DNA of 63,874 bases, counting the filler, from Atractiella rhizophila (Eukaryota), in the NCBI GenBank assembly GCA_021432655.1. It is 9 parts of 8 records of this genome, joined end to end, with 100 filler letters (N's around TTAATTAATTAA, not from the genome) between each part and the next. Parts side by side here need not be neighbours in the genome. Positions count along the whole stretch, not along the records: positions 45,497 to 56,730 come from MU272046.1; 8 more parts are not named here. One strand, given 5' to 3'. Numbering within the stretch: position 1 is the first letter of the stretch; every line of letters begins with the position of its first letter. A program made the translations under genes and the position numbers. Under the pieces are notes generated by a model. The model did no database searches. It had not been told where the DNA came from and saw nothing but the letters and a program-made list of their open reading frames with translations. Positions 6,374-63,333 of the stretch are shown piece after piece.

Positions 6374-6446
6374 GCCCGGCTAGCTCAGTCGGTAGAGCAT
6401 CAGACTCTTAATCTGAGTGTCGTGGGTTCGAGCCCCACGTTGGGCG
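6374..6446 (+). tRNA. tRNA-Lys(CTT), intronless
   Basis: GCCCGGCTAGCTCAGTCGGTAGAGC...CAGA-CTCTTAA-TCTG...GGTTCGAGCCCCACGTTGGGCG cloverleaf; T run at ~6450-6454 as Pol III terminator. Confidence 0.97.
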
Positions 6447-11320: not shown

Positions 11321-11420
11321 NNNNNNNNNNNNNNNNNNNNNNNNNNNNNNNNNNNNNNNNNNNNTTAATTAATTAANNNNNNNNNNNNNNNNNNNNNNNN
11401 NNNNNNNNNNNNNNNNNNNN
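11321..11420. other. Artificial six-frame-stop linker (also 22693-22792, 34056-34155, 45397-45496, 56731-56830, 58661-58760, 60794-60893, 62734-62833)
   Basis: 44 N + TTAATTAATTAA + 44 N, repeated eight times. Confidence 0.97.
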
Positions 11421-12896
11421 GTCCACGCCGTTTTCTACCCATGCTTTCTTTCCTGCAAGACTTTAGCTCAGCTTCGCGTTACTTGAAAAACTTACGCTTC
11501 CACAAATGCTTTCTCAAACTGGTCCTTGACTCCCTTCATATCTAGCTCACTCCTAATTCCTGAACCTCTATCGTTGTGCGCAAGCCGCCTAATAATGCTG
11601 AAACGCGTTCGAGAGTGGTGTCGGCACCGCGAAGGTAGACTTCCAACAATGCCTGTAAGCGGGCTCATTCAGTCAAGTCAGGCTTGGAGAGGAATGAAAG
11701 TCCCAAATATCACATTGAAATTCCAAGCAGCATACTATTTAGCGAACGGAGGCAATTAGCTAGTCAGACAGAGATGTTCTTTATCCGTAAATGTAATTAC
11801 TGTGATTATGAGATTATTACGCGGAAAAATTGCATACTCAAGGACCTGCATGACTTTCACGTCTGGATATCGCGGAGCAGTTCCGTGGATCTATCGTTAA
11901 GATGGAATATGGTTTGGATTGAACAGCTTGACTCCGTCTGTTTTCCATGAGCGCGCACAATGCCTCGCATGTAGAGGTTCATTACCGTTCATTGACAGTA
12001 GTACGGTGGCCTCATTGGCCACTCGATAATTCCAGCTCGGATTTTTTTATGGCAGCTCAACATTTGACAATCAATCGCTACAGAGGCTGTCGAGTTTTCT
12101 GTGAGCGAATCGACGATAAAGAATCTAAAGACGATAAGCGGTCGCAAATTTGTCGCACCTTCGACAGAGAATATCGTCTCTTAGGAAGATGTCGGATCAT
12201 ACATTCAACTGCAAACTTTTATTGGGCATGGTTCAGTATGAAGCAAGACCTCCGATCTAACAATCGCATCTCGATCAACCTGCGACCAAGGCTTGATGCA
12301 GAAAAGCGCCAGAACTTCGAGCGTAAACTCAGTCCATAGGTTGGATATGCGGTTCTGATTCATTCACGAAAGCGAGAGTCAGCGAAGGAACTATGTCCGC
12401 GCTCGAAAGACGGCGTGAGTCGCTGAAAAGGCATGGGAAGCGGACATTCCCCTACTCGGCATTTGCCATCAGAGCCCGGCGAGGTGGATTTCCCTCGCCT
12501 CCTGCTAGTAGCGCTCTGACTAGTATTTCATTACCTTCATTCATCCTCATTTCATGCCAACTCAACACCAGTAAATTTCAATGAATGTGAGGACGGAGCT
12601 CACGTTATATGTACTTGAAATCCCGCCTCGTCGCACCACAACTTGATATCATTTTGAGCAAGCCATCGTTTGCAGCTTGGGTGCAAAAACAAACAGAACT
12701 AGTTGAGTTGAGTGCTTAAGTCGCCAAAGTAGCCTAATTGCCGTATCAATCTAATTTGAGAAATCGATCATTCAAACTTGTTTTTACTTTGAAGGATCTA
12801 GCTAGTCACCCAGAAGACTTGGACGACTGTCTTGATAGGGGATGATAGGAGGAGGAGGGAAACTACGAGGGGAGTTCTGGGCAAGGATAAGCAGAC

Positions 12897-22692: not shown

Positions 22693-22792
22693 NNNNNNNN
22701 NNNNNNNNNNNNNNNNNNNNNNNNNNNNNNNNNNNNTTAATTAATTAANNNNNNNNNNNNNNNNNNNNNNNNNNNNNNNNNNNNNNNNNNNN

Positions 22793-26861: not shown

Positions 26862-28120
26862 ATGTCGAGAGATAGGCTGGCTGCGTTTCAGGTTCGTCCC
26901 TTCGCCCAACTTATTCTGCAGTGGTTGATGTAAGATGCCTTTTGAAGAATCAGGTTTCAACTGGAGCGAATCAGAACTCTCCAATGACCAACGGAGCGGA
27001 TCAACCTCATCGTCTGGAAGCTGGAGAAGGAGGACTGGATTTTAATAATGAGGCGAGTTATCCATCCTTCTCAAAGCTCCCAGCAGCTTTGGAATGGAAC
27101 AATAGCTTGTGGATGTCTGAATATCTTCTGACTAGATTTAATTTAGTTCTCTGTCATTCAAGACCAGCTCTCCTCCCTCAGCGGCATGATCCAACAACTG
27201 TCCTCGGCGCTGTCTTCTCCCGATCGTGATCCATCCACCACGAAGAATATTCAACGGCTTCAGGAGGCATCTTCTCATTCAGTGAGCAATATCAAAAGTC
27301 GTCTCACTCTGTTAGAGAGTTCTATTGCACGCCTCCCAGCAAGCGATGACAAGAAAGTCCGACTTCAGCAAGCGGCAGCCCTTAAGAACAGGTTCAAGGC
27401 CGTCATCGAGGGATATCAAAAGGAAGAGAAGAAGAACAGAGATAAGTTAAGAGAGAGGATGGAGAGACAGTATAGGATTGTGAAACCTGAGGCGGTGAGT
27501 CTAGAATCCTTTCTCATGAGAGGATGCTGATGAAGAGCAGACGGACGAGGAAGTGCGGAGTGCTATCGAGGATGGCAGGGGTGATCAGATATTTTCTCAA
27601 GCCGTGAGCAGGTCCACTCATCATCTGCCCACAAGCCAATGACAGCATCGTAGCTTTTGAGCTCGAATCGACATGCGGATGCGAAGAGCGCTTACCAAGA
27701 TGTCCAAGAAAGGAGAGACGAGATAAAGAGGATCGAACAGAAGATGATTGAACTTGCGCAGCTCGTCAATGAGGCGCGTTCCCTTTTCTCAATCTCAATC
27801 TCAATAATGCATATTCTTACGATCTTACGCAGCTCTCCGTAATGCTCGAGCAGGATGACGAGAAGATAGAGAACATCGATGAGAAGGTGGACAACACAAG
27901 TAAGGACATGGGAATTGCGTATGTTCTCTCCTTCTCCTTAACTTGATGCTTTACGACCCTTGCTTGTTCTAGGTTGCAGAACGTACAAGAAGCAGTCAAG
28001 TCAGCCCGAAATACGCGCAAGCTGAAACGGTATGCTCTGGGGTGCTTTGTGTTGATACTTGTCATTCTCGCCATCGTCTTGGGAGTGGTATTTGGGCACC
28101 ATGGGCACCATGGGGACTAA
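26862..28120 (+). CDS. Sso1/2-type plasma-membrane syntaxin, paralog A (more divergent)
   Basis: MSRDRLAAFQ, RERMERQYRIVKPEA, SNARE motif AYQDVQERRDEIKRIEQKMIELAQLVNE|LSVMLEQ, C-terminal TM ending GHHGHHGD*. Confidence 0.92.
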
Positions 28121-28446: not shown

Positions 28447-30193
28447 ATGTCCAGAGACAGATTAGCAGGAATCAGGGTTCGTGAAATTCCGCTTTGGTGG
28501 GGACTCTACTCACGACAAGAGCAGGCGCAACAGCAGCCCACCGAGCAGCCCTATGCGCCTCAGCAGGCCGGTGGTTATGGGGGATACGATCAAGATCAGC
28601 CCTATGAGCAAGCAAGGCCAGCGGGTGATGATATGCAAAGCTTTTTCGAGGAGGTTCGTTGTTCCCTTTCTATAACTTCCGTACACTTTATGCTGGGAAA
28701 TGTGTTGGGAACGCGAATGGCTTTATGTTTGTTCCGGAGGGTGGGGGCAGCATGTTCAGCGATTTGGCGTATATGGCCTGCTTTATTCTCTTGCATCCGC
28801 CGGGGAGGCGGGACCCTTTCACCCTTGTTCTGTGAAGAAGATGATGAGAACATTTGCTGGCACCAGTCCTATCCCTTGTGAGGACGTAGCAATTGCAGAA
28901 TGGCATAATACGCAGCCATTCCTGATCTTCACTACAAGTTTCTGCGATTTACTTTTTCCGTTCTCACCTCAAGCTGTTCGCACGAACCCTGCAGCAAGGC
29001 GAATGGTTGCCCAAAATTGCCTTATTAGTGGATCAGTGAACCAAAACTCTTGATGGGATGTCTGGGAAGAACGTGGTTCTCGGCTTCGGTGTGCGGATAG
29101 CTCTCCGCTGGGCGCCGGAACTACGGTCAGGATGGACACTGATACCTCTTTTAGATTGGGTCTATTCAAGATGCCATCAAGACTCTCAATGCTAACATCA
29201 ATCAAATTCAAGAGCTCCACAACCGCCAACTGACAACTCTCGACTCTGCTGGTGACGCTGGTGATATTTCGGGCCAGCTGCAATCACTCCAAACCTCTAC
29301 GTCCCGCCTAACGAACAATCTCAAGAACAGGATCAAACTCCTTGAGACTGCTACCTCTCGTCTTCCTCCTAGCGGTGACACCAATGTTCGACGAACGCAG
29401 GAAGGCGCTGTTAAGAAGAGGTTCATGGAAGCCATCCAGAACTATCAAGGCGTCGAGAAGCAGAGCAGGGACAAGTACAGGCAAAGGATGGAGAGGCAAT
29501 ACAGGATCGTCAAACCTGATGCCGTCAGTTTTTTATCCTCCTGTTGTGAACAACGCCTTAATACTAGGATAGACGGACGCTGAAGTCAAGGCTGCAGTTG
29601 AAGGCGGACAAGGAGAACAAGTCTTCTCGCAAGCCGTCAGTCCATTCTCCCCTTGATATGTGTCACAGAATGCTTACTGGCGCTGCAGTTGATGAACTCG
29701 AACAGGTACGGAGATGCCAGAGCTGCCTATCGTGAGGTGCAAGACAGACATGCCGACATCAAGAAGATCGAACAAACTATCACTGAGCTCGCACAATTGT
29801 TCAACGAAATGTCTGTCCTCACTCAAGAACAAGACGAAAAGATCGTTCAGATTGATCAGCAAGCGGCTACCGTCGAGCAAGATTTGGGCAATGCGTATGA
29901 TACTTCCTCCTTCTCCCTTTTCTTTTATAGTGACCCCTTTGCAGAGAGGGTCAAATCCAGAAGGCAGTCAAGAGCGCTCGTGCTGCCAGGAAGAAGCGAT
30001 GGATCTGCTTCTTCATCTGCTTGATTATCATTGCTGTACGTTGTCGTCCCTCCTGCAGACATTTGGAGCTACTTATGACTGACTCTACTTGCCAGGTTGT
30101 CGCCATCGTCCTTGGTGTCCATTTTGGTTTGTCTCTTCTTCGCCCTCTCACAATTTAATGGCTCATACTTCTTTCATAACAGGGACCAAGTAG
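28447..30193 (+). CDS. SSO1: Sso1/2-type plasma-membrane syntaxin, paralog B
   Basis: MSRDRLAGIR, QRMERQYRIVKPDA, AYREVQDRHADIKKIEQTITELAQLFNEM, ARKKRWICFFICLII TM; 501-bp intron 28654-29154. Confidence 0.94.
28832..28932 (+). ncRNA. Intronic box C/D snoRNA, predicted 18S rRNA methylation guide
   Basis: 7-bp terminal stem GTGAAGA/TCTTCAC, box C ATGATGA 28841-28847, box D CTGA 28922-28925, C' GTGAGGA 28878-28884, 12-nt guide TGCTGGCACCAG antisense to conserved 18S CTGGTGCCAGCA. Confidence 0.82.
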
Positions 30194-33713: not shown

Positions 33714-34155
33714 TGAGGCGCCTTGGTATTTTTTACATCGAGGTACTTGTGGCAAGAGAAACATTGTGGAATGGACAATAAGTTCCCAGGCGAGTGTACA
33801 AAACAACTTGTCAAGATGAATTTCACCAAGCTGCAGCATGTGCCTCGGATTAGGATCCTCTGCACCGTCACATAAACTCTAAACGTACACCCTTGAGAAT
33901 AGAGAACACTCGACCTCCCTTGGAAGAGCTCCTCCAACCTCCTTTTGATTCTTCTCCTTCCTCTTTTTCTTTAGGTTTCTCAGCCTCCATCAGCCAAGCT
34001 CAGGTCCAGTTTTTATACCTCTTCTTCATGTTCATATGCTAAAGGCGAAGAGAGANNNNNNNNNNNNNNNNNNNNNNNNNNNNNNNNNNNNNNNNNNNNT
34101 TAATTAATTAANNNNNNNNNNNNNNNNNNNNNNNNNNNNNNNNNNNNNNNNNNNN

Positions 34156-38144: not shown

Positions 38145-40335
38145 ATGTCGCGTCCCATCCCCCAAACCCCATCCAAGAAGCGTTCACGACGCGCAGAAGG
38201 AGAAAGAGAAGAAGAGATCCATATCACTCCTCAGAGACCGAAGAAACAGAGGGTGGGGAACTTCCAACTGCCTTCTCCTGCTCCTTCTTCCAGGACTCCG
38301 ACCTCGAGACCAGCAACAGCGGGTGTGATATCTTCGGAGGGGAAGGAAAAGAGTCAAAAGACGCGTGCGTTCCTCTTCTATTTCTGTTTTTTCACTTGGT
38401 GGTGGTGGTTATCGAGGTATGACTGCTGATACCGGGACAAACAGTTGGCCCATTCGCCTCCCTCCGAAAAGCACTCCACGCCGTTCCCTCTGTACTCCCT
38501 TCACGCGACTCGGAACGGGACACCATCACCCAATTTCTCCTCTCCCGCTTCCCTTCACTCTCGACTACCACCTCACTAGATGTCGTCAAAAGTGTCAATG
38601 CAGAAGGCGAGCCGTCCACTCCCCCCGCTACGCCGAAGAAGGCGCGGGCACGGAAGGAGATGAGGAATTTGCATCTGAGCGGGACGCCGGGAGTGGGCAA
38701 GACGGCTTTGGTGAAGGAGGTCGTCGACGATCTTTTCTCTGCTCCGGCGAGTCTGTCGCTGTCGGAAAAGCAGAGGGTGGATCTGGTTTGGGTCAATTGT
38801 TTGCAGGCGGGGGGAACGGAGGGAAAGATTGTCGCTGCTGTGTTGGATAAGGTGGGGTTGAAGAGCGCTTCTCAACTTGGACCGTACTTTCTGACACATC
38901 CCACGTACGCTTTTTTCTGTTCTCTCTCTCTATTTACATTTAGATAGCTAAATTATACTGTACGTGATACAGTCTATTGGTTTTGGACGAACTGGACTCG
39001 CTCCCCCCAATTCTAACCTCAGCTCTCTCCTCCTCCAGCTCACGCACATCCTTGATCTCAATCTCAAACTCCCTCCTACCCCTAACCCTCCCTCAAACCC
39101 TTCACCTCCCATTCGCCCCCTACCCTCCCACCTCACTCACGTCCATCCTCACAACCCTGCTCCGAGACGAAGAGGAAGGAAAAGGATTCGACGAAAATGC
39201 ACTCAAGCTCTTGGGAAGGAGAGTCGGCAAAGAGTCTGGAGACTTGAGGAGGGCTAGAGAGGTGGCGGCGAAGGCGATAGACGTGGCTGAGAAACGGATC
39301 GCTGCTCTTGAGAAAGTAGACGGAGTGGAGAGCGTGGAGGTGAAAGTGACGATCGCGGACGTCCAAACCGCCCTCTCCGCGTCTTCATCCTCCTCCTCCT
39401 CACCATCCATTGGAGTTGCGAAGAAAGGGCTGTTGGATGGATTGAACTTGCAAGGGAAAATCGTCCTCCTCTCCATCCTCCTTTCTTCTTCCAGCCAGAA
39501 TCAAGGAAAGGAACCATATGCGGTTTACAAGGTCTTGTTGAGGGGTGAAATGGACCTTCTCTCCCCCCTCTCTCGTGGCGAATATCAAGATGTGATCTCT
39601 TCGCTTGAAGGATTTGGTCTTTTGGTCTCTCATGATGACGTGTCTCCGAACTCGAAGTCGAGTTTAACGACTCCGTTGACTCCACGAAAGACGCCGCAGA
39701 GGAAGAAGACAAAGTCGCTCTTCGGCCGCTCCACCTCTTCCTCATCCATCTCCCCCTCTCGCTCCCCTTCAACCACTTCACTCCTTTCGCTCTCGACCGG
39801 GATAACAGGAGCGGAATGGGAGGTAAGAGAGAGGGAGAAGGTGGAAGTGGCGTTGAAGGAGGCGAAGGGAGAGGAGGGGGAGGTGGTTAGGAGGTGTTGG
39901 GGGGAGTGGAGAAAAAAAAAAAAAAAAAAAAAAATGGTCTCTTACGACGATCTGTCTCCGAATTCGAAGTCGAGTTTAACGACTCCGTTGACTCCAAGAA
40001 AGACGCCGCAGAGGAAGAAGACAAAGTCGCTCTTCGGCCGTTCCTCCTCTTCCTCATCCATCTCCCCCTCTCGCTCCCCCTCAACTACTTCACTCCTTTC
40101 GCTCTCGACCGGGATAACAGGAGCGGAGTGGGAGGTAAGAGAGAGGGAGAAGGTGGAAGTGGCCTTGAAGGAGGCGAAGGGAGAGGAGGGGGAGGTGGTT
40201 AGGAGGTGTTGGGGGGAGTGGAGGAGGACGGAGGAGAGGAAGGTGCTTAGAGATAGAGAGGAACGGAGAGGGGGAGAGGGAGGGGAAGAGAGGTGGGGAA
40301 GTAAGTGGAGAGGGGAGGAGGAAGAGGGGTTTTGA
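38145..40335 (+). CDS. CDC6: Cdc6/Cdc18 replication initiation AAA+ ATPase with duplicated C-terminal segment
   Basis: Walker A HLSGTPGVGKTALV, WVNC, Walker B VLDELDSL, LPFAPY, SGDLRRA, LNLQGKIVL; starts 286 bp from the divergent MDV1 start. Confidence 0.88.
39623..40223 (+). repeat. 289-bp direct duplication separated by A23
   Basis: 39623-39911 and 39935-40223 near-identical; A-run 39912-39934; period 312 bp keeps the frame. Confidence 0.95.
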
Positions 40336-45396: not shown

Positions 45397-45496
45397 NNNN
45401 NNNNNNNNNNNNNNNNNNNNNNNNNNNNNNNNNNNNNNNNTTAATTAATTAANNNNNNNNNNNNNNNNNNNNNNNNNNNNNNNNNNNNNNNNNNNN

Positions 45497-48289
45497 AACC
45501 TCGCCAAATCGATGCTGTACCATGCAAGACTCCCATTAGCATTCTGGGCAGAAGCTCTCTACTTCGCTGGGCACGTACACAACCGAATACCCCACTCCTC
45601 TCTCCAAGGAAAAATCCCGCTCACAACTCTTGAAGGTACCCTCCCCTCAGTCGGATATCTGCGAACATTCGGATGTACAGCATGGGCGTTGATCCCAGAG
45701 GAGAGACGGAGGAAGTGGGAGGACAAGGCTGTTCGCTGCATCTACCTGGGTCCGGACATCATGTTCAAGTCGCATCGATGCTGGGATCCAGCGAAACGTC
45801 GACTGATTCGTGCACGTCACGTCATTTTCGCCGAAAGCTACTTTGAAGGACGCACTGGGTCGGATCGACTTGAAGACTACACGTTCTGGTCAGAACAAAA
45901 CATAGATGAGTTCCCCCAAGACTTACCCTCCGATCCCAGTCTTCCCGATTCAGGAGTACGACGAGCTCCTCCTATTCCCGATTCTTTGGAAACTATCGCT
46001 CCAACACCATCTATTCTCAATCAAACCGCGAAGGGAACCAATGTCGTGGGGGATAACTTGAGTACGGGCAGTTGCGAGGGCGCTACACACGATGGGGTGG
46101 ACGTAAGACCCGCTGTTCAGGAAAGTGACCCTTTTCTCCATCAGCAACTCTTTCCTGACAGAACAACGGGACGCACCGAAAGCGAAGGAGGCAATGTCAG
46201 CCCCCCATCACCCTCTCTTCCCACCGTCGCATCCAAACCCCAGACACAGACTCCTCCTCAACCTCGTCGTTCCACACGAGTAAGAGTTCCAAATAAACAC
46301 ATTTTCGGCGGCGAGTACGTTGTCGATTCGAAATACAAAGACATCTTGCGCCTTGCTACCACTCCGTGCGAAACAAAAGGAAGCGTAACTGCTTCCAAAG
46401 TATCAAAATCGGGCAGTTGCAGTGGGGCCAAGCACATAGTGGTGGACGTAAGACCCGCGCAACAGGAGAGTGCCTTTCACTCCGTTGAAACCCTTGAACC
46501 TAACATCAGCACTCCTACGGCCGTTCAAGTCGAAGAACTCACAGAGAAGGATGTGCGTGAAGCCATCCGTCACCACGGTACCCATAACCTTCCTTCCTCA
46601 CGTCTCTCCGATACCGTTGATTACATGTTCTCCACCCGAGCCCTGCAAGACCAGGGATGGTCCTTGCGCGAGCCAAGGAGTCTGAAGGAAGCGTTGAGAA
46701 GTGAAGAAAGGGAGGAATGGTTGGAGGAATGTCGAAAGGAGTGGGAGAAACAGTTTTTGAATAAAACAATAGAAGGAGAACCTATTGATCTCCCAGAAGG
46801 CGAGACTGCAACACCGCTGATGTGGGCATTTCGACACAAATACGACATCAACGGCAAGCTGCAAAGCTTGAAAGCCCGTATCTGCGTCAGAGGAGATCTT
46901 CAAGCTCCGACAGGCAACCCAACTTTCGCGCCTGTCAGTAGTGGCGAAACTATTCGTGGAGTCATCGCTCTGGCAGCACGCGAGGATCTTGCAATCTATC
47001 AAGCTGATTACGAGACTGCTTTCCTCAACTCCCCCATTGACACCTCGAAAACTCGAATCTACATTCGCCAGCCCCCGGGCCTAGAAAAACCAGGAACGGA
47101 AGGAAAGGTCTACCTCCTCAAAAAGGGGTTGTACGGGCTGCTGGAAGCTGCACGCCTGTGGTTCGACACGTTAAAAAACGACCTCACTGCAAAGGGCTGG
47201 ACACCACTCTGGTCTGATTCCTGTGTCTTCACCAAGAAGCAAGGGGGGAAGCTTTATATTCTCATTGTCTATGTCGATGACACTCTCCTTCTTGGTAAAG
47301 ATCGAATAACCGTCCAAGCCCTCCAAAAAGAGCTTGGGACTTCGTTTGCCTTGCGCATCCTAGGAGAGATGGGGAAGTTCCTAGGGATGGAAGTAAAGCG
47401 AAATTGGGAGAAACGCACGATAAGCTTGACCCAAAGAGTCTACACCGCGACTATCTTGGAAAAGTTCGGTTTCACAAACAGCTATGCCAGCGTACCGGCA
47501 AACCCCAAAATCAAACTCGAGCCTTTCAACGGCACATGGACTCAGGAGGAACTTGAAAACAGACCTGAGTGGTCCTTCCTCGAAGCAACTGGATGCCTGA
47601 ACTGGCTCTCAATCTGCACAAGACCTGATATCACTTATGCCCTTTCAAATGTCCAACGCTTCGCAGCCAATCCAGGGCCAGAACATTTCAAGGCCGTAAA
47701 ACAAATCTTGCGTTATCTCAGCGCCACTTCGAACAAAGGCCTTCTCTTCAACGGAAACGATCGTCGCCCCCTGCACGCATACGCTGATGCCTCTTTCGCC
47801 TCTCTCCTACCTTCTCTCAAGTCCCAAGAAGGCCGCCTCACCATGCTTTGCGGCGCACCAATCACCTTCAAGTCAAAACCTCAAACAGTAGTCGCATTGT
47901 CTTCCGGAGAAGCAGAGTATGGGGCCGCTGCCAAAGCAACTGCTGACCTGCTCTGGACAAGAGGCCTCTACTCAGAATTGGACGCGCTTCGAAGCGTTCA
48001 CAACGTCCTTGATGGAGAAGACATCCCACCAACCACTGTCTATGAAGACAACCAAGCCGCGATAAAGATCTCAACGAATGGAGTGCACCATGCACAAAGC
48101 AAGCCTTTCTTGCTTCGTTATCACATGGTACGAGACAACGTTCAGAAAGGGAACGTAATCCTACGGTATATTCCAACACGGCATCAAATAGCCGACGTCC
48201 TGACAAAACCGTTATCGAAGGACGCTTTCCATCAATGCATCCACGCTATGGGTGTACGAGACGTAGGAGAACGGATACAATTTTCATAG
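45497..48289 (+). mobile_element. Ty1/copia pol (integrase C-terminus, RT, RNase H), uninterrupted ORF, 5' cut by linker
   Basis: FWAEAL, LRTFGCTAW, KARICVRGDLQ, QADYETAFLN, LKKGLYGL, VYVDD, TRPDITYA, YADASFA, SSGEAEY, EDNQAAI, QIADVLTKPL in IN-RT-RH order. Confidence 0.98.
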
Positions 48290-48400
48290 AACAAGTTTCA
48301 TATACTGATCACACACCATTTCTCAAACCGTCCCACCCGTCCCAGCATCTGACACCATCTCCATCTCTCTGTTTTCTATCGGTAGCGTACGTAGTGGGAG

Positions 48401-48637
48401 TGTTGAACTGTCGTTGTTACTCTCGCTGATCTGCTTTCACTTTACGCCTCTTTCCGCATTTCGTATTGTTGTTCCGTCCGCTCCCGTAGTTTACTTCGCA
48501 TTCTCACCTTACCTGAGGTTCATCTTTTGTCACCATCATTTCTGATGAACCTCAGGTAAGCCCTCCTGTCTCATATAGTCATGTAATATTCATTGATCTT
48601 TTGTCACCATCATTTCTGATGAACCTCAGGTTCAACA
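48401..48637 (+). repeat. 3' LTR of the copia element (237 bp)
   Basis: TGTTGAA...TTCAACA termini directly after purine tract GTAGTGGGAG (PPT, 48391-48400). Confidence 0.93.
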
Positions 48638-50713
48638 ATAATGTCAGCGCACGGATATCTGATAGCTCTGATAGGACCAAGAGGCATGTCCCCTTGATCC
48701 TTCCATGACGAGTATTGGATATGCATGAAAGCCATGATTATGAAGTAGGAACAAAGTGATTCCTCAAGTTTCAAATCAACAATCAACCTTCATGTGTATT
48801 CGCCTAGCCCGAATGAGAAAGCGGCAATGTGACCCACACATCCAACCTGACGAATGCCTCCATCATAAAAGATCTCACTGTGAAATACAATTTATCGAAT
48901 GGACGCTTTCGAAAAACAGACTCGAGCTGATCGTTGAACCTCGGACTGTGGATCTGCTCTGCCACTTAAGGAATCATTGGGGAGTCATTCGCCCGACCCC
49001 TGTTTTCGACGAATCTAGGTCACATTGGATCCATGTCAGCTGCTTCTTTGAAGAAGACTGAAGACGAGAGGAGGCACTTCGTTACGGCCCATCCTGTCTT
49101 CCAGGAAGTTAGCTTGTGTTCATGGATCCTTCTATGCGGAGTGTTACACGTTACCAGTAATCAGATGAGGCTTAACACAGGTTGTCGGCAAGTGATCAAT
49201 GGCGTTCAACTCGCGAATGTTACATGGTCCAGTACAACGCACTGAGTCATCATACACAAAACGAAAAACTGTGTCCCGCATCGCCCAATTGCAAAATACG
49301 AAGACACTGAAGCAAGAACTTCTTGAGACGGTGATACATACTTGGAATGTTTGGATGGCTGGCTCATGAATCGACGTCAGAGTTGAACACCGTTCTGATC
49401 CGCTATCGAGTCCATAAACGCTGACCTGCTCGTTCGATTTCCTTCTGACGTCCGAGGTATGATCAATTCAGCTTTTGCTAATCCAGCCGCCTCACGTAAC
49501 TTCTCCGGGTCAAAGTCTTCAACCGCATGAGTGTAAGCCGGACGCTTGGCCTCAAATCGAAAGTAGACATTGCAAGTCGCAGAAGTAGATATCCGCCTCT
49601 GTAGCTTCTCTGGACCATGCTGTCCTGCGTCAACCGACCCAACCTCTAAGAGAGCGTCAGCCGACAAATTCTGGGTTTGCTGTCACAGGTTCGTCTTTCT
49701 CCTCCACTGAAAGAAATGACACAGCCACTCAAAGCCATCATCGCTCAGATGGACTGTGCTTCATTGACTGAGGCCATGATGGGGTTCAACTGTCCGGTGA
49801 CGCGGCATCCACAGATTCGGTGTCATCAATCGTGACTGGGAGAAAGAGGCGTGGCATCAGCAATGGTCGCGCGAGCCACCTACCAAAGTTTTACCTCATC
49901 CCAAATCTCATGAGAGCGAAACACCTTCAGATCAGTTATCGATGATTCGTAAGCCGTTACGGCTACTCATGCAACCCCCCGTGAACATGGGCAAAAGAGT
50001 GATCTTTGCTGACGCCATCCTTCGAAATCAACTCCTGGAAAGAAGCTTCGAAGCGAGATGAAAATGCGGCAGAAGCCATGAACTATATCCGGGGCGAAAG
50101 CCTTCTCACATGAGATATCGGAAAGCAGCAATTGCTTGGTTCACTGACATCTTGAGAGATCCGAACATCAACGCAAGAAGTCCACCCGTCGAGAAACCGA
50201 TAATCAAATCAAAGAATTTGTGACCTGAAGGTCGTCAGGATGATCCAAGCTTGAACTTTTGTATTTCTTCTTCTGAAAGTCCGAACAGAGTTGCCGTAGA
50301 ATCTCTCGCAAAAAGAATAATTCATCGAATGCCCATGTCACACTGCCGTCCAGTGACAAAATCCATTTCCGCGAAAGAAGCGCCGGAGTCACAAGCGTCA
50401 GAGAGCTCTGCCGATCCGCAACCTGGCCTGCATCGATATCAAAGGATGCCTTGGTTAGAGTGTGCCCGCCAGTCATTGCATTGGTGAGGTCAACTGACGA
50501 ACAAGCTCGGATTCGGCAGCGGTGAAATCGAGACGAAAGTCAGTTCGAGTGAAAGCACAGACCATTCAAAGAGGAAGGTCGAAGCTGTTTTGCATCTCCA
50601 GAGTCCCATGTTTCAGTCCTCAAGCTTCGTCGCATCAAAAAATCTCGATAAATTTCAGTTTTCTCCTAATGGCTACGATGTATGTTTTACTGTTTGTGCT
50701 CAGAAATGGGTGC

Positions 50714-56730: not shown

Positions 56731-56830
56731 NNNNNNNNNNNNNNNNNNNNNNNNNNNNNNNNNNNNNNNNNNNNTTAATTAATTAANNNNNNNNNNNNNN
56801 NNNNNNNNNNNNNNNNNNNNNNNNNNNNNN

Positions 56831-58660: not shown

Positions 58661-58828
58661 NNNNNNNNNNNNNNNNNNNNNNNNNNNNNNNNNNNNNNNN
58701 NNNNTTAATTAATTAANNNNNNNNNNNNNNNNNNNNNNNNNNNNNNNNNNNNNNNNNNNNAGGAGAGTAGAGCGAACGAGAGTGGAAGAGAGTTGCGTCT
58801 GCGCTTTTAAAGACCTTTGAACACAGGT

Positions 58829-60793: not shown

Positions 60794-60893
60794 NNNNNNN
60801 NNNNNNNNNNNNNNNNNNNNNNNNNNNNNNNNNNNNNTTAATTAATTAANNNNNNNNNNNNNNNNNNNNNNNNNNNNNNNNNNNNNNNNNNNN

Positions 60894-61354: not shown

Positions 61355-63333
61355 AGGTTTCCTTTGTTGATGATCGAAAGCAGGGATACAGATGTTGCGA
61401 TTGTGAAAAGTTGGCCCTTGGGAGTTTGATCTACGAGAGATTATGAATCTACAGGTTGTGATACCCGACACCCAACGCATAGACACCTCGAGGTCAGGCT
61501 TCTATTATTTTTCAATCTGAATTGAATGATCCAAAGCTTTCATGCTTTTAAATAGAGCAAAGAAATAAAGGGCTGCCAGTACAGCCCGTATCCCGCGCTA
61601 TTTCCGGTTTTAGGTGAATTACTGGTCAGAGAATCAGGGAGATTGGCTGATACTGTAACTCTGGTGATTCATGCTCTTGTTGCGGATATTCCGGTAGTCT
61701 CAATACTACACATCGGCCAACACATTGCGTCAACGCATGAGACTCACCGTTATGTAGCAAGCGGGAGGCATTGATTATTACTCAAGGATCTATGGTGAAG
61801 TTAGTCGATCCTTCCGTCTACAACTGTTGGGTAAGTAGTTTTTTGAAACGTAAGAGCAAATATGGCAATGAGGCATTATTCAAATGGATCAAGACACTTG
61901 ATAGCTACTGGCCACGACAAGGCGGTTGCAAAATATGTGGTTTCCCGTGGTTGAAGAAAGTTGTCTGTGGTGACACGATGTCCTGTCTCAGGGCGTACAA
62001 TCACGTTCTCAACATTGAATGTAAAAATATTAAAAATCGGTTCTTTCTAATCCCTCCACATTGACATTTGAACTCGCATTTGAACATTTGAACCTCTGTC
62101 AAAAGTCATGTTAGACACTTTTTCGGGCTCGTTTAGCTACTTGTTGGACACTTGTATACGCTCCAAAGACAGTCAACCAAAACATAGAAACTTGTGCAAA
62201 ATATGACTGCAGACATTGCTTAGATAACGACGTTAACTAGCATTCTGCAGGTTCAGAACTCAACACTAAGCAGTAATTGTTTGGCAACTGAAATGCCACC
62301 TGATCGTGGCTGAGACTCTGACAAGCCTAATTAAGGCAGAATCGCCCCGTTGAAGTAAAATTACATGATAACAACATTATTTGTTCGTCATTTCTGTGTA
62401 GGTGAAACTTCAATTCTCTCAAGCCCAGACATAATATTGGTTCAGCTCCCCCTCTCCCTTAGTCAAAATTCTTGCCTTGCCACCTTTTGGTATAGATTTA
62501 ATCGTTCCATCAAGACATACAAGTCTATCTTTTTCTTCCTCCGAGTTACCACTCTAGGAATACCCTCATAAACCCTTTCGAATACTTCCGCCATTTGTAC
62601 AGCTATAGTGAGATGGGCTCCTCCCCTGCTCCCAACACCTCATAAAGTCCTGCCTTCCGACCCTTACCTATGGGCACGCAAGTGAGAGACTCCTCAGGAC
62701 ATAAAGTAACTACTAGAACACTTATCCTAGGATNNNNNNNNNNNNNNNNNNNNNNNNNNNNNNNNNNNNNNNNNNNNTTAATTAATTAANNNNNNNNNNN
62801 NNNNNNNNNNNNNNNNNNNNNNNNNNNNNNNNNCCTGATCGAAACTGCATTTCCTAAGCTGACCGTCAGCTATGACCAGGTCGACCTGGGGACTCTGCTT
62901 ACCTAGCCCGGTAGGTAGCGTAGAGGGATACGACTCCATGGACGCAAAGCGCCAGCAGTGGTGTTGTGAGCGAACGTCCCGGACGCAGCACGTACAACTG
63001 GTGTAATCCTTGCATTAAACTCGATCCAGGCTCTTCCCTAATTTGACAAGTTAGTGTGGAAAATGAATTTTCCGAAGCGGGAAATGCCGACCGGCAAACT
63101 GTGACAGATCTAACTTTTGCTGAAGTGGTGTGCCTTCTCAACTCCTAGAATGCAGATGTCGACCTCCCACCCTGTCTTAGCTCAACCCGCCTCCCACGGT
63201 GGAGGCCGTTCTCGCGGTCCTTCTTCGCTATCCTCTGAGCTCCCAATGAGGGCGATGACCTTGCCTCAAACAGCTCAGGTCCGCTCAACTTCTGCATTCC
63301 TTTGGACACTGGACTGATCCTCAGCCATGATAG

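Follow-up and report, generated by a model that had tools for sequence, protein, structure and literature searches.

We analyzed a stretch of 63,874 nucleotides (nt) of the Atractiella rhizophila genome (assembly GCA_021432655.1), here called the window at its full length. The analysis is centered on a long terminal repeat (LTR) at 48401..48637, hereafter LTR1, in which a duplicated tract, intron-like splice signals and a hairpin over the splice donor occur in an arrangement that may allow an intron to be rebuilt at each replication cycle. The stretch is composed of separate contigs chained by eight identical linkers of the form N44-TTAATTAATTAA-N44 (11321-11420, 22693-22792, 34056-34155, 45397-45496, 56731-56830, 58661-58760, 60794-60893, and 62734-62833), which represent an artificial six-frame-stop linker, so that the gene neighborhood across the joins is not real. 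The start of the element carrying LTR1, a Ty1/copia retrotransposon, corresponds to the contig join at 45397-45496 and not to a biological end; it follows that its gag region, primer binding site (PBS), and 5' LTR lie off-contig. By BLAST, the window contains neither the 5' LTR of this element nor a second copy of LTR1. A 5'-truncated element adjoining a short-chain dehydrogenase gene was considered and rejected, since the junction is the artificial linker, and the dehydrogenase fragment just upstream of 45397-45496 is not a true neighbor of the copia element.

The internal part of the element is represented by an open reading frame (ORF) on the plus strand (45497..48289, stop codon at 48287-48289), which corresponds to a Ty1/copia pol region from the end of the integrase through the reverse transcriptase (RT) and RNase H. 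In particular, we could recognize an RVT_2 reverse transcriptase domain (PF07727, E 1.4e-43, residues 446 to 681), preceded by the C-terminal SH3-like domain of the integrase (PF25597, E 2.5e-22, residues 63 to 132), the integrase core being off-contig; the order from integrase to RT is the gene order of Ty1/copia elements. A purine-rich tract and LTR1 follow the pol stop at a distance of 111 nt. The tract, AGTGGGAG (48393..48400, plus strand), resembles a polypurine tract (PPT) in sequence, may act as one, and directly abuts LTR1 (237 bp, plus strand), which is bounded by an 8-nt terminal inverted repeat, TGTTGAAC...GTTCAACA. The initial annotation had called this region a copia LTR, and it was right: the terminal sequences, the purine tract upstream, the ORF with RVT_2 and integrase domains, and the steps in word depth at the LTR borders reported below all identify 48401-48637 as the 3' LTR of a fungal Ty1/copia element.

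Repeats, splice-like signals, and hairpin in LTR1

The 34-bp direct repeat reported for LTR1 was found to be exact, with one copy at 48522..48555 (A1) and the other at 48596..48629 (A2), both on the plus strand, and it occurs nowhere else in the window; two matches of the 34-mer were obtained in 0 of 100 shuffles. The identity extends to 36 perfect nt (48522-48557 equal to 48596-48631) and to 39 nt at 97%, with a spacing of 74 nt. The repeat thus covers just 39 of the 74 nt, and its second copy abuts the LTR terminus, so that the arrangement does not amount to the two or more full tandem units of a U3 enhancer repeat. The terminus itself, GTTCAACA (48630..48637, plus strand), would represent the whole of U5, or the end of R, under the layout proposed below.

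A putative 74-nt intron (48556..48629, plus strand) starts immediately after A1 and closes with the last base of A2, with the donor GTAAGC at 48556-48561, a branch-like CTGAT at 48616-48620, and the acceptor CAG at 48627-48629. As the initial annotation had stated, the deletion of this segment leaves a single repeat copy and the 8-nt end of the LTR. A1 would be the first exon and the 5' copy of R, with transcription predicted to start at about 48522, and A2 would be the 3' end of the intron and the 3' copy of R, where the strong-stop cDNA would land.

Nine candidate host introns were collected in the window by a screen that required GTRNGY donors and CTGAY or CTAAT branch motifs, so that only their lengths (48 to 120 nt) and the branch distances (9 to 32 nt from the end) are free observations. 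The putative introns of LTR1 and of its relative LTR2, described below, fit these ranges, being 74 and 70 nt long with the branch-like A of CTGAT located 10 nt before the end in both; moreover, their donor hexamers, GTAAGC and GTAGGT, are both present among the nine candidates. An intron-like triple of donor, branch, and acceptor is found about once per 1.7 kb per strand in the window, and the triple alone is, given that frequency, weak evidence. The register of the signals is a different matter. GTRNGY has a frequency of 0.0025 per position and YAG one of 0.026; for the former to follow A1 immediately and the latter to close the repeat, post hoc arithmetic gives a chance of about 7e-5. It is the position of the splice signals relative to the repeat, and not their presence, that chance makes unlikely.

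The donor is also covered by an inverted repeat, whose description in the initial annotation was accurate: two arms of 17 nt (48508-48524 and 48544-48560), 19 nt apart, are 100% complementary. The upstream antisense arm, CTTACCTGAGGTTCATC (48508..48524, plus strand), is complementary to the sequence formed by the end of A1 and the following GTAAG, and it overlaps A1 by its own last 3 nt. Folded as RNA, the LTR1 stem reaches -28.5 kcal/mol (z -8.4), and none of 200 shuffles folds equally well.

A second lineage and copies in other genomes

By comparing LTR1 with the window by BLAST, we identified one diverged relative on another contig, with 70.5% identity over 173 columns. This relative, LTR2, is a 232-bp sequence on the minus strand (13128-12897) with the ends TGTTGAAG...CTTCAACA, flanked on both sides by GTCTG (12892..12896, with the other copy at 13133-13129, minus strand). 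It follows that LTR2 is a solo LTR with a 5-bp target-site duplication, which fixes the LTR ends for the group; TG...CA ends and a short terminal inverted repeat are present in both LTR1 and LTR2.

LTR2 contains the same module, all on the minus strand. Its arm, CTATCTGAGGTTCATC (13023-13008), is the counterpart of CTTACCTGAGGTTCATC, and its A1 has 36 nt (13010-12975), compared to 34 in LTR1, and is directly followed by the donor GTAGGT (12974-12969) in the place of GTAAGC. The putative intron (12974-12905, 70 nt, compared to 74) includes a spacer of 35 nt (40 in LTR1) and an A2 of 35 nt ending in CAG (12939-12905; 34 nt in LTR1), after which the 8-nt terminus CTTCAACA (12904-12897) corresponds to GTTCAACA. 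Upstream of the arm, the longest block shared by the two LTRs in the alignments is CCGTAGTTTA (48484..48493, plus strand, in LTR1), which, by its position about 30 nt before A1, may be a core-promoter element.

Between the two LTRs, the part upstream of the arm is identical at 74/119 positions, the spacer at 24/41, and A at 28/38, whereas the two copies of A within the same LTR are identical at 34/34 positions in LTR1 and at 35/36 in LTR2. The middle of A, which lies outside the stem, is unlike between the LTRs (GTCACCATCATT and CTTCGTTCTGTCAC) and the same in both copies within each. If A1 and A2 had drifted at the rate observed between the LTRs (0.74 identity per column), the probability of 34/34 would be about 4e-5 by simple arithmetic. 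On this comparison, A1 and A2 co-evolve within each LTR, and the expectation of the initial annotation that the two copies do not diverge independently held in a second lineage.

The hairpin is likewise present in LTR2, at -30.3 kcal/mol (z -6.3), with a stem of 16 bp over the donor, compared to 17 bp in LTR1. In the aligned stem, 33/33 cells are paired and 15/17 pairs are invariant; of the other two, the pair that involves the donor's fourth base is changed on both sides, from U-A to C-G, and one C-G pair has become a U-G wobble. From these two sequences, the module is clearly conserved across two lineages and is probably functional.

Furthermore, the edges of the repeated tract coincide in the two lineages. 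The identity between A1 and A2 begins at the same ATC in both LTRs, the preceding base being C at A1 and G at A2, and in LTR2 it ends exactly with CAG, followed by GT after A1 and by CT after A2; in LTR1 it is 2 bases longer. The left edge is a C|A step located 3 nt inside the arm, where the initial annotation had placed the transcription start. The tract is therefore bounded by a C|A step on the left and by the proposed end of the exon on the right, which is the span expected of a cDNA copy of a spliced leader. As to the bases before the tract, it is possible to hypothesize, purely speculatively, that the G before A2, compared to the C before A1, may be the trace of a copied cap.

The likeness of the LTR1 and LTR2 spacers, donor included, is reached by 16 of 2000 shuffles. 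Considering the shared edges and flanking bases, the similar spacer length, and the donor at the start of the spacer, the parsimonious reading is that the duplication is older than the split between LTR1 and LTR2, from which it would follow that A1 and A2 were kept alike throughout the divergence of the family. Separate origins in LTR1 and LTR2, the less parsimonious possibility, would themselves need a recurrent, site-specific mechanism. No further carriers of the motif were found in the window beyond LTR1 and LTR2 by BLAST and by repeat and pattern scans, and the hairpin pattern had 0 matches in genome contigs and 0 in viral contigs. The pol query gave no match in viral contigs and a single weak match of 30 residues in metagenomes, which was not used.

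Copies of LTR1 were observed outside the window by comparing the region 48200-48800 with three DNA runs (X1, X2, and X3), in which depths are k-mer depths of 31-mer contigs and therefore rough. Exact LTR1 unitigs occur in runs under two other organism labels: in X1, the unitigs over 48401-48473, 48444-48541, and 48528-48625 show 0 differences and depths of 1388 to 1577, compared to about 152 in the flank, and in X3, those over 48317-48551 and 48528-48625 also show 0 differences. In the other-organism runs, the LTR1 depth is about ten-fold that of the flank, rising near 48400 and falling at 48638. The LTR1 family is multicopy, with identical copies. An assembly artefact as the source of LTR1 was rejected on account of these exact unitigs in runs of two other organisms. 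In a fourth run, the soil metagenome X4, nothing was placed on 48200-48800; none of the four runs that the search gave is on record as RNA.

The insertion site itself is empty in X1, X2, and X3, where a contig reaches 48653 from non-LTR sequence and resumes the sequence of the window at 48638, immediately after the LTR. Among the genomes compared, only that of the window thus has the insertion, though the LTR is identical across them. The flank (48638-48800 region) differs from the window by 10 to 13 letters and 6 to 7 gaps per 148 nt. Identical LTRs next to a differing flank mean that the element was very recently active, or moved between lineages, or that the flank evolves fast.

The ratio of the depth of the spacer unitig to that of the upstream unitig is 0.94 in X1, 0.95 in X2, and 0.67 in X3, where the depth is below 10. 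On the rough scale of the first two values, nearly all exact copies carry the spacer once. The joints listed include none that skips or repeats 74 nt, an outcome that carries no weight: 31-mer contigs break inside the 36-nt repeat, and LTRs without the intron or with three copies of the repeat would create no new words. Moreover, 48539-48637 is spanned by a diverged contig, ahead of which a loose end carries a variant arm and A1; this partly seen variant indicates a third lineage in which the parts are arranged as in LTR1 and LTR2. The copies of the element in X1 and X2 vary in the region that separates the pol stop from the LTR, one contig skipping 123 nt (48259-48381) and another having 13 extra bases after 48359. 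X1 and X2 also contain a joint of 48637 to 48380, in a diverged contig of 5.5 kb, where an LTR-end-like sequence of 30 to 37 nt is directly followed by the polypurine region and the LTR start; the joint may mark tandem elements, or else a sister family whose PPT is preceded by a short LTR-like segment.

As to other features of the window, its sole tRNA gene is a tRNA-Lys (CTT) at 6374-6446, and an RTA1-family protein is encoded; gene content, with neighbors in a protein atlas that are mostly from Ascomycota, points weakly to a fungal host. Positions 39623-39911 and 39935-40223 form a near-tandem duplication of 289 nt (95.5% identity), which repeats a serine-rich protein segment within a long ORF with a weak Cdc6 C-terminal match, and a dispersed repeat of 119 nt (74% identity) is present at 27382-27500 and 29411-29529.

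Candidate mechanisms

The module is ordered as follows: U3 arm, A1, 5' splice site, spacer of about 35 to 40 nt, A2 with the branch motif and CAG, and 8-nt terminus. In standard LTR replication, the 3' end of the RNA contributes U3 and the 5' end contributes U5, with R present at both ends. The most coherent reading of the module, which we nonetheless hold at somewhat short of an even chance, is that of an intron regenerated by strand transfer; its start site, splicing, polyadenylation site, and transfer register are inferred from the sequence. We propose, still more tentatively, that LTR1 contains a spliceosomal intron and that A1, as the first exon, and A2, as the last 34 nt of the intron, jointly constitute R and are rebuilt in each cycle.

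According to this model, the 5' LTR would be transcribed from the initial nucleotide of A1 onward, beginning just beyond the arm, and the leader would lose the 74-nt segment by splicing, so that the RNA 5' end would consist of A1, GTTCAACA, and the PBS. The RNA of the 3' LTR would include the arm, and the 17-bp hairpin would lock the donor and the 3' half of A1, leaving that copy unspliced and polyadenylated at or after A2. With A acting as R, the strong-stop cDNA made on the spliced leader would anneal to the free A2 and be extended through the spacer, A1, the arm, and U3, by which an intron-containing LTR would be rebuilt and A2 overwritten by A1 in each cycle. The burial of the 3' half of A1 in the 3' LTR RNA would also steer the cDNA to A2. 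A possible benefit concerns 3'-end signals, which the spacer may carry, its A/T-rich, TGTA-containing stretch being the only one of LTR1, and which must be removed from the leader or silenced in it; alternatively, a leader intron could raise expression.

Several features of the module would find their reason in this regenerating-intron model. A copy of the first exon would precede the acceptor because A2 is the 3' copy of R; the tract would be bounded by a start-like C|A step and a splice junction because the cDNA copies the spliced leader; A2 would always equal A1 because it is overwritten in each cycle; the spacer would survive because it is templated from the 3' LTR; and the arm would lie just upstream of the start and over the donor because it would be transcribed only at the 3' LTR, where it would mask the donor. 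Work with retroviral vectors leads one to expect that a 36-nt direct repeat is prone to loss in reverse transcription; a repeat of this class persists in both lineages despite that proneness. The initial annotation had interpreted the module as such a splicing switch, and the comparative part of that interpretation stood, since A1 and A2 are kept alike and the module recurs in LTR2; splicing itself and the transcript ends retain the conditional standing given above. A variant in which transcription starts at A1 and polyadenylation occurs before the spacer was rejected: A2 would fall in U5, untied to A1, in conflict with the co-evolution of the two copies.

Different observations weigh against the regenerating intron. 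No pyrimidine tract is present beside the acceptor CAG, and the distance of 10 nt for the branch-like A is at the short end of the host range of 9 to 32 nt. A U5 of at most 8 nt would be unusually short. The A1 of the 3' LTR would be almost as good a landing site as A2, which predicts intron-less progeny, and A2, over 14 nt, can pair with the arm as well. A TATA-like CATATAG at 48571-48577, 19 to 25 nt before A2 in LTR1, suits a conventional start at A2 and is absent in LTR2. Moreover, the spacers without the donor are barely alignable (155 of 2000 shuffles score as well), and covariation between two sequences is statistically weightless, 258 of 500 shuffles reaching that of the stem. The base of the whole comparison is two full LTR sequences and a partly seen third variant.

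The principal alternative, which we regard as unlikely but as the strongest of those considered, is that the donor works as a binding site for the U1 small nuclear ribonucleoprotein (U1 snRNP) controlling polyadenylation, without splicing. The exposed donor of the 5' LTR would suppress a poly(A) signal located in or after the spacer, and the arm would hide the donor of the 3' LTR and permit polyadenylation; R would correspond to A1, spacer, and A2, with the repeats kept alike by RT template switching. In agreement with this possibility, the arm is complementary to the donor in both LTRs, and the spacer, which follows the donor, holds the only A/T-rich, TGTA-containing (UGUA in the RNA) stretch of LTR1; neither LTR contains AATAAA. 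However, this stretch is not conserved in LTR2. Furthermore, U1 control would leave unexplained the presence, at the right distance, of a second A with a branch motif and a terminal CAG, as well as the exact end of the identical tract at the splice junctions; it has no built-in homogenization of A1 and A2, and an unspliced R of this composition would need repeated mis-registered transfers, which should also give LTRs with one and three copies, and would leave the splice signals as coincidence. A precedent for the control of polyadenylation by an LTR donor is offered by foamy viruses (PMC3694450).

A second unlikely alternative is that the module is a partial tandem duplication, consisting of 1.5 copies of a unit of 70 to 74 nt, produced by RT template switching, and that the splice-like signals are coincidental. 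The hairpin at the border between R and U3 would then serve strand transfer or RNA stability, and expansion and contraction would keep the repeats alike. Retroviral reverse transcription commonly produces duplications and deletions at direct repeats, and repeats of about 70 bp are frequent in LTRs; a mis-annealed strong-stop cDNA ending at the RNA 5' end would also put the edge of the repeat at the start, and the chance frequency of intron-like triples given above is on the side of coincidence. On the other hand, the improbability of a donor exactly after A1 together with a YAG exactly ending A2, calculated above, stands against it, and both are kept in LTR2. Moreover, the number of copies is exactly two in LTR1 as in LTR2, their spacers are similar in length, and the spacer depth of 0.94 to 0.95 of the neighboring unitig points to a nearly uniform copy number. 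The stem, in turn, covers the donor precisely, and the single changed donor base is compensated.

A conventional LTR, in which transcription starts at A2 from a promoter in the spacer, R is A2, and the hairpin of arm and A1 is a regulatory or terminator-like part of U3, appears improbable. It would account for the CATATAG upstream of A2 in LTR1, and the resulting RNA 5' end would be the same as that of the proposed spliced leader. However, A1 and A2 would be expected to evolve independently, which is contradicted by the identities within the LTRs compared to those between them, the unpaired loop included. In addition, the spacer of LTR2 has no TATA-like motif, and the G before A2 is a poorer initiator context than the C before A1. 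Finally, that the hairpin is a Dicer substrate or small-RNA precursor regulating the element, the rest of the module being incidental, is very improbable: the shape is precursor-like, but the Rfam match to a miRNA precursor is sub-threshold and at chance level (18 bits compared to a gathering score of 44, E 0.77), and the repeats and splice signals would be unexplained.

The element is an LTR retrotransposon with an unusual LTR logic. Retrotransposition normally erases introns, and this is the basis of the standard retrotransposition reporters. If the regenerating-intron model is true, a leader intron rebuilt in every cycle would represent a new answer to two problems common to all LTR elements, namely giving the two identical LTRs different behavior and obtaining the expression benefit of an intron while retaining it. 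Splice sites inside an LTR would bear on the annotation of LTR-driven chimeric transcripts, and the pattern of arm, A, GT, and a second A provides a simple search key for other families.

Comparison with known systems

An LTR-internal intron regenerated by strand transfer was not found in the literature searched, which covered titles and the starts of abstracts, with subscription journals outside the coverage; one paper among those found concerns an engineered lentiviral vector (PMC5542766). Retroelements containing functional introns are known: spliced RNAs are formed by LTR retrotransposons such as Drosophila copia, with its 2-kb RNA, BARE, and Ogre, and Penelope-like elements retain introns. 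However, different from the putative intron of LTR1, that of copia, BARE, and Ogre is internal and survives because the packaged RNA is unspliced, and Penelope-like elements are not LTR elements. We know of no report, among copia, BARE, Ogre, and Penelope-like elements, of an LTR-internal intron rebuilt by strand transfer.

The U3 region of retroviruses carries tandem repeats of 72 to 75 bp, and RT deletes direct repeats. LTR1 shares with these a period of about 74 nt inside the LTR and a likely origin by template switching, but it has 1.5 copies, with the second running to 8 nt from the LTR end; moreover, splice signals fall at the edges of its repeat, and two diverged lineages have maintained this layout. 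In HIV-1, U1 snRNP suppresses the poly(A) site of the 5' LTR, and a donor near the 5' end blocks premature 3' end formation in the leader. The likeness to LTR1 consists of this donor near the RNA 5' end preventing premature 3' end formation; the difference is that the HIV-1 donor lies downstream of the LTR, so that masking at the 3' end is unneeded.

Splicing-type chemistry has been connected to minus-strand transfer in Ty1, a copia-group element. The lariat hypothesis, and the requirement of Ty1, Ty3, and HIV-1 for Dbr1, go back to Cheng and Menees 2004, as described in PMC5399748; the model is one in which a 2'-5' branch joins the RNA 5' end to the 3' border of R, and it is disputed (PMC5399748). 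The reading proposed for LTR1 resembles this model in tying splicing-type chemistry at the U3/R border to minus-strand transfer in a copia-group element; different from it, ordinary cis-splicing signals are visible in the LTR1 DNA, and the proposed reading does not require the RNA 5' end to be branched. If the intron of LTR1 is spliced as proposed, the element would offer a system with visible splice signals in which to probe the link of splicing and debranching to minus-strand transfer raised by Ty1 and Dbr1.

The closest documented parallel for the hairpin is found in foamy viruses, whose LTR has the major splice donor in R. There, the binding of U1 snRNP suppresses the poly(A) site of the 5' LTR, and a U3 stretch of only 13 nt is enough to alter the fold around the donor at the 3' LTR (Schrom et al. 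2013, PMC3694450). As in LTR1, the donor is inside the LTR and hence at both RNA ends; as proposed for LTR1, U3, which is transcribed only at the 3' end, changes the access to it, so that the two LTR copies behave differently. Foamy viruses are, however, retroviruses, whereas the element considered here is a fungal copia element. In foamy viruses, the choice of poly(A) site is controlled by the donor, whose acceptors are located far downstream; no in-LTR acceptor or duplicated exon/acceptor repeat is described, and the change in fold is subtle, compared to a perfect 17-bp stem in LTR1. Pairing of upstream LTR sequence with the donor region, a feature of foamy-type masking, was found in both LTRs, as stems of 17 and 16 bp; the arm would belong to U3 if transcription starts where predicted. 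By analogy, masking of the donor by a U3 arm at the 3' LTR only would not be without precedent (PMC3694450). Even if splicing does not occur, foamy-virus-type discrimination between the two LTRs would be extended to a fungal copia element by an arm of U3 that masks a consensus donor perfectly.

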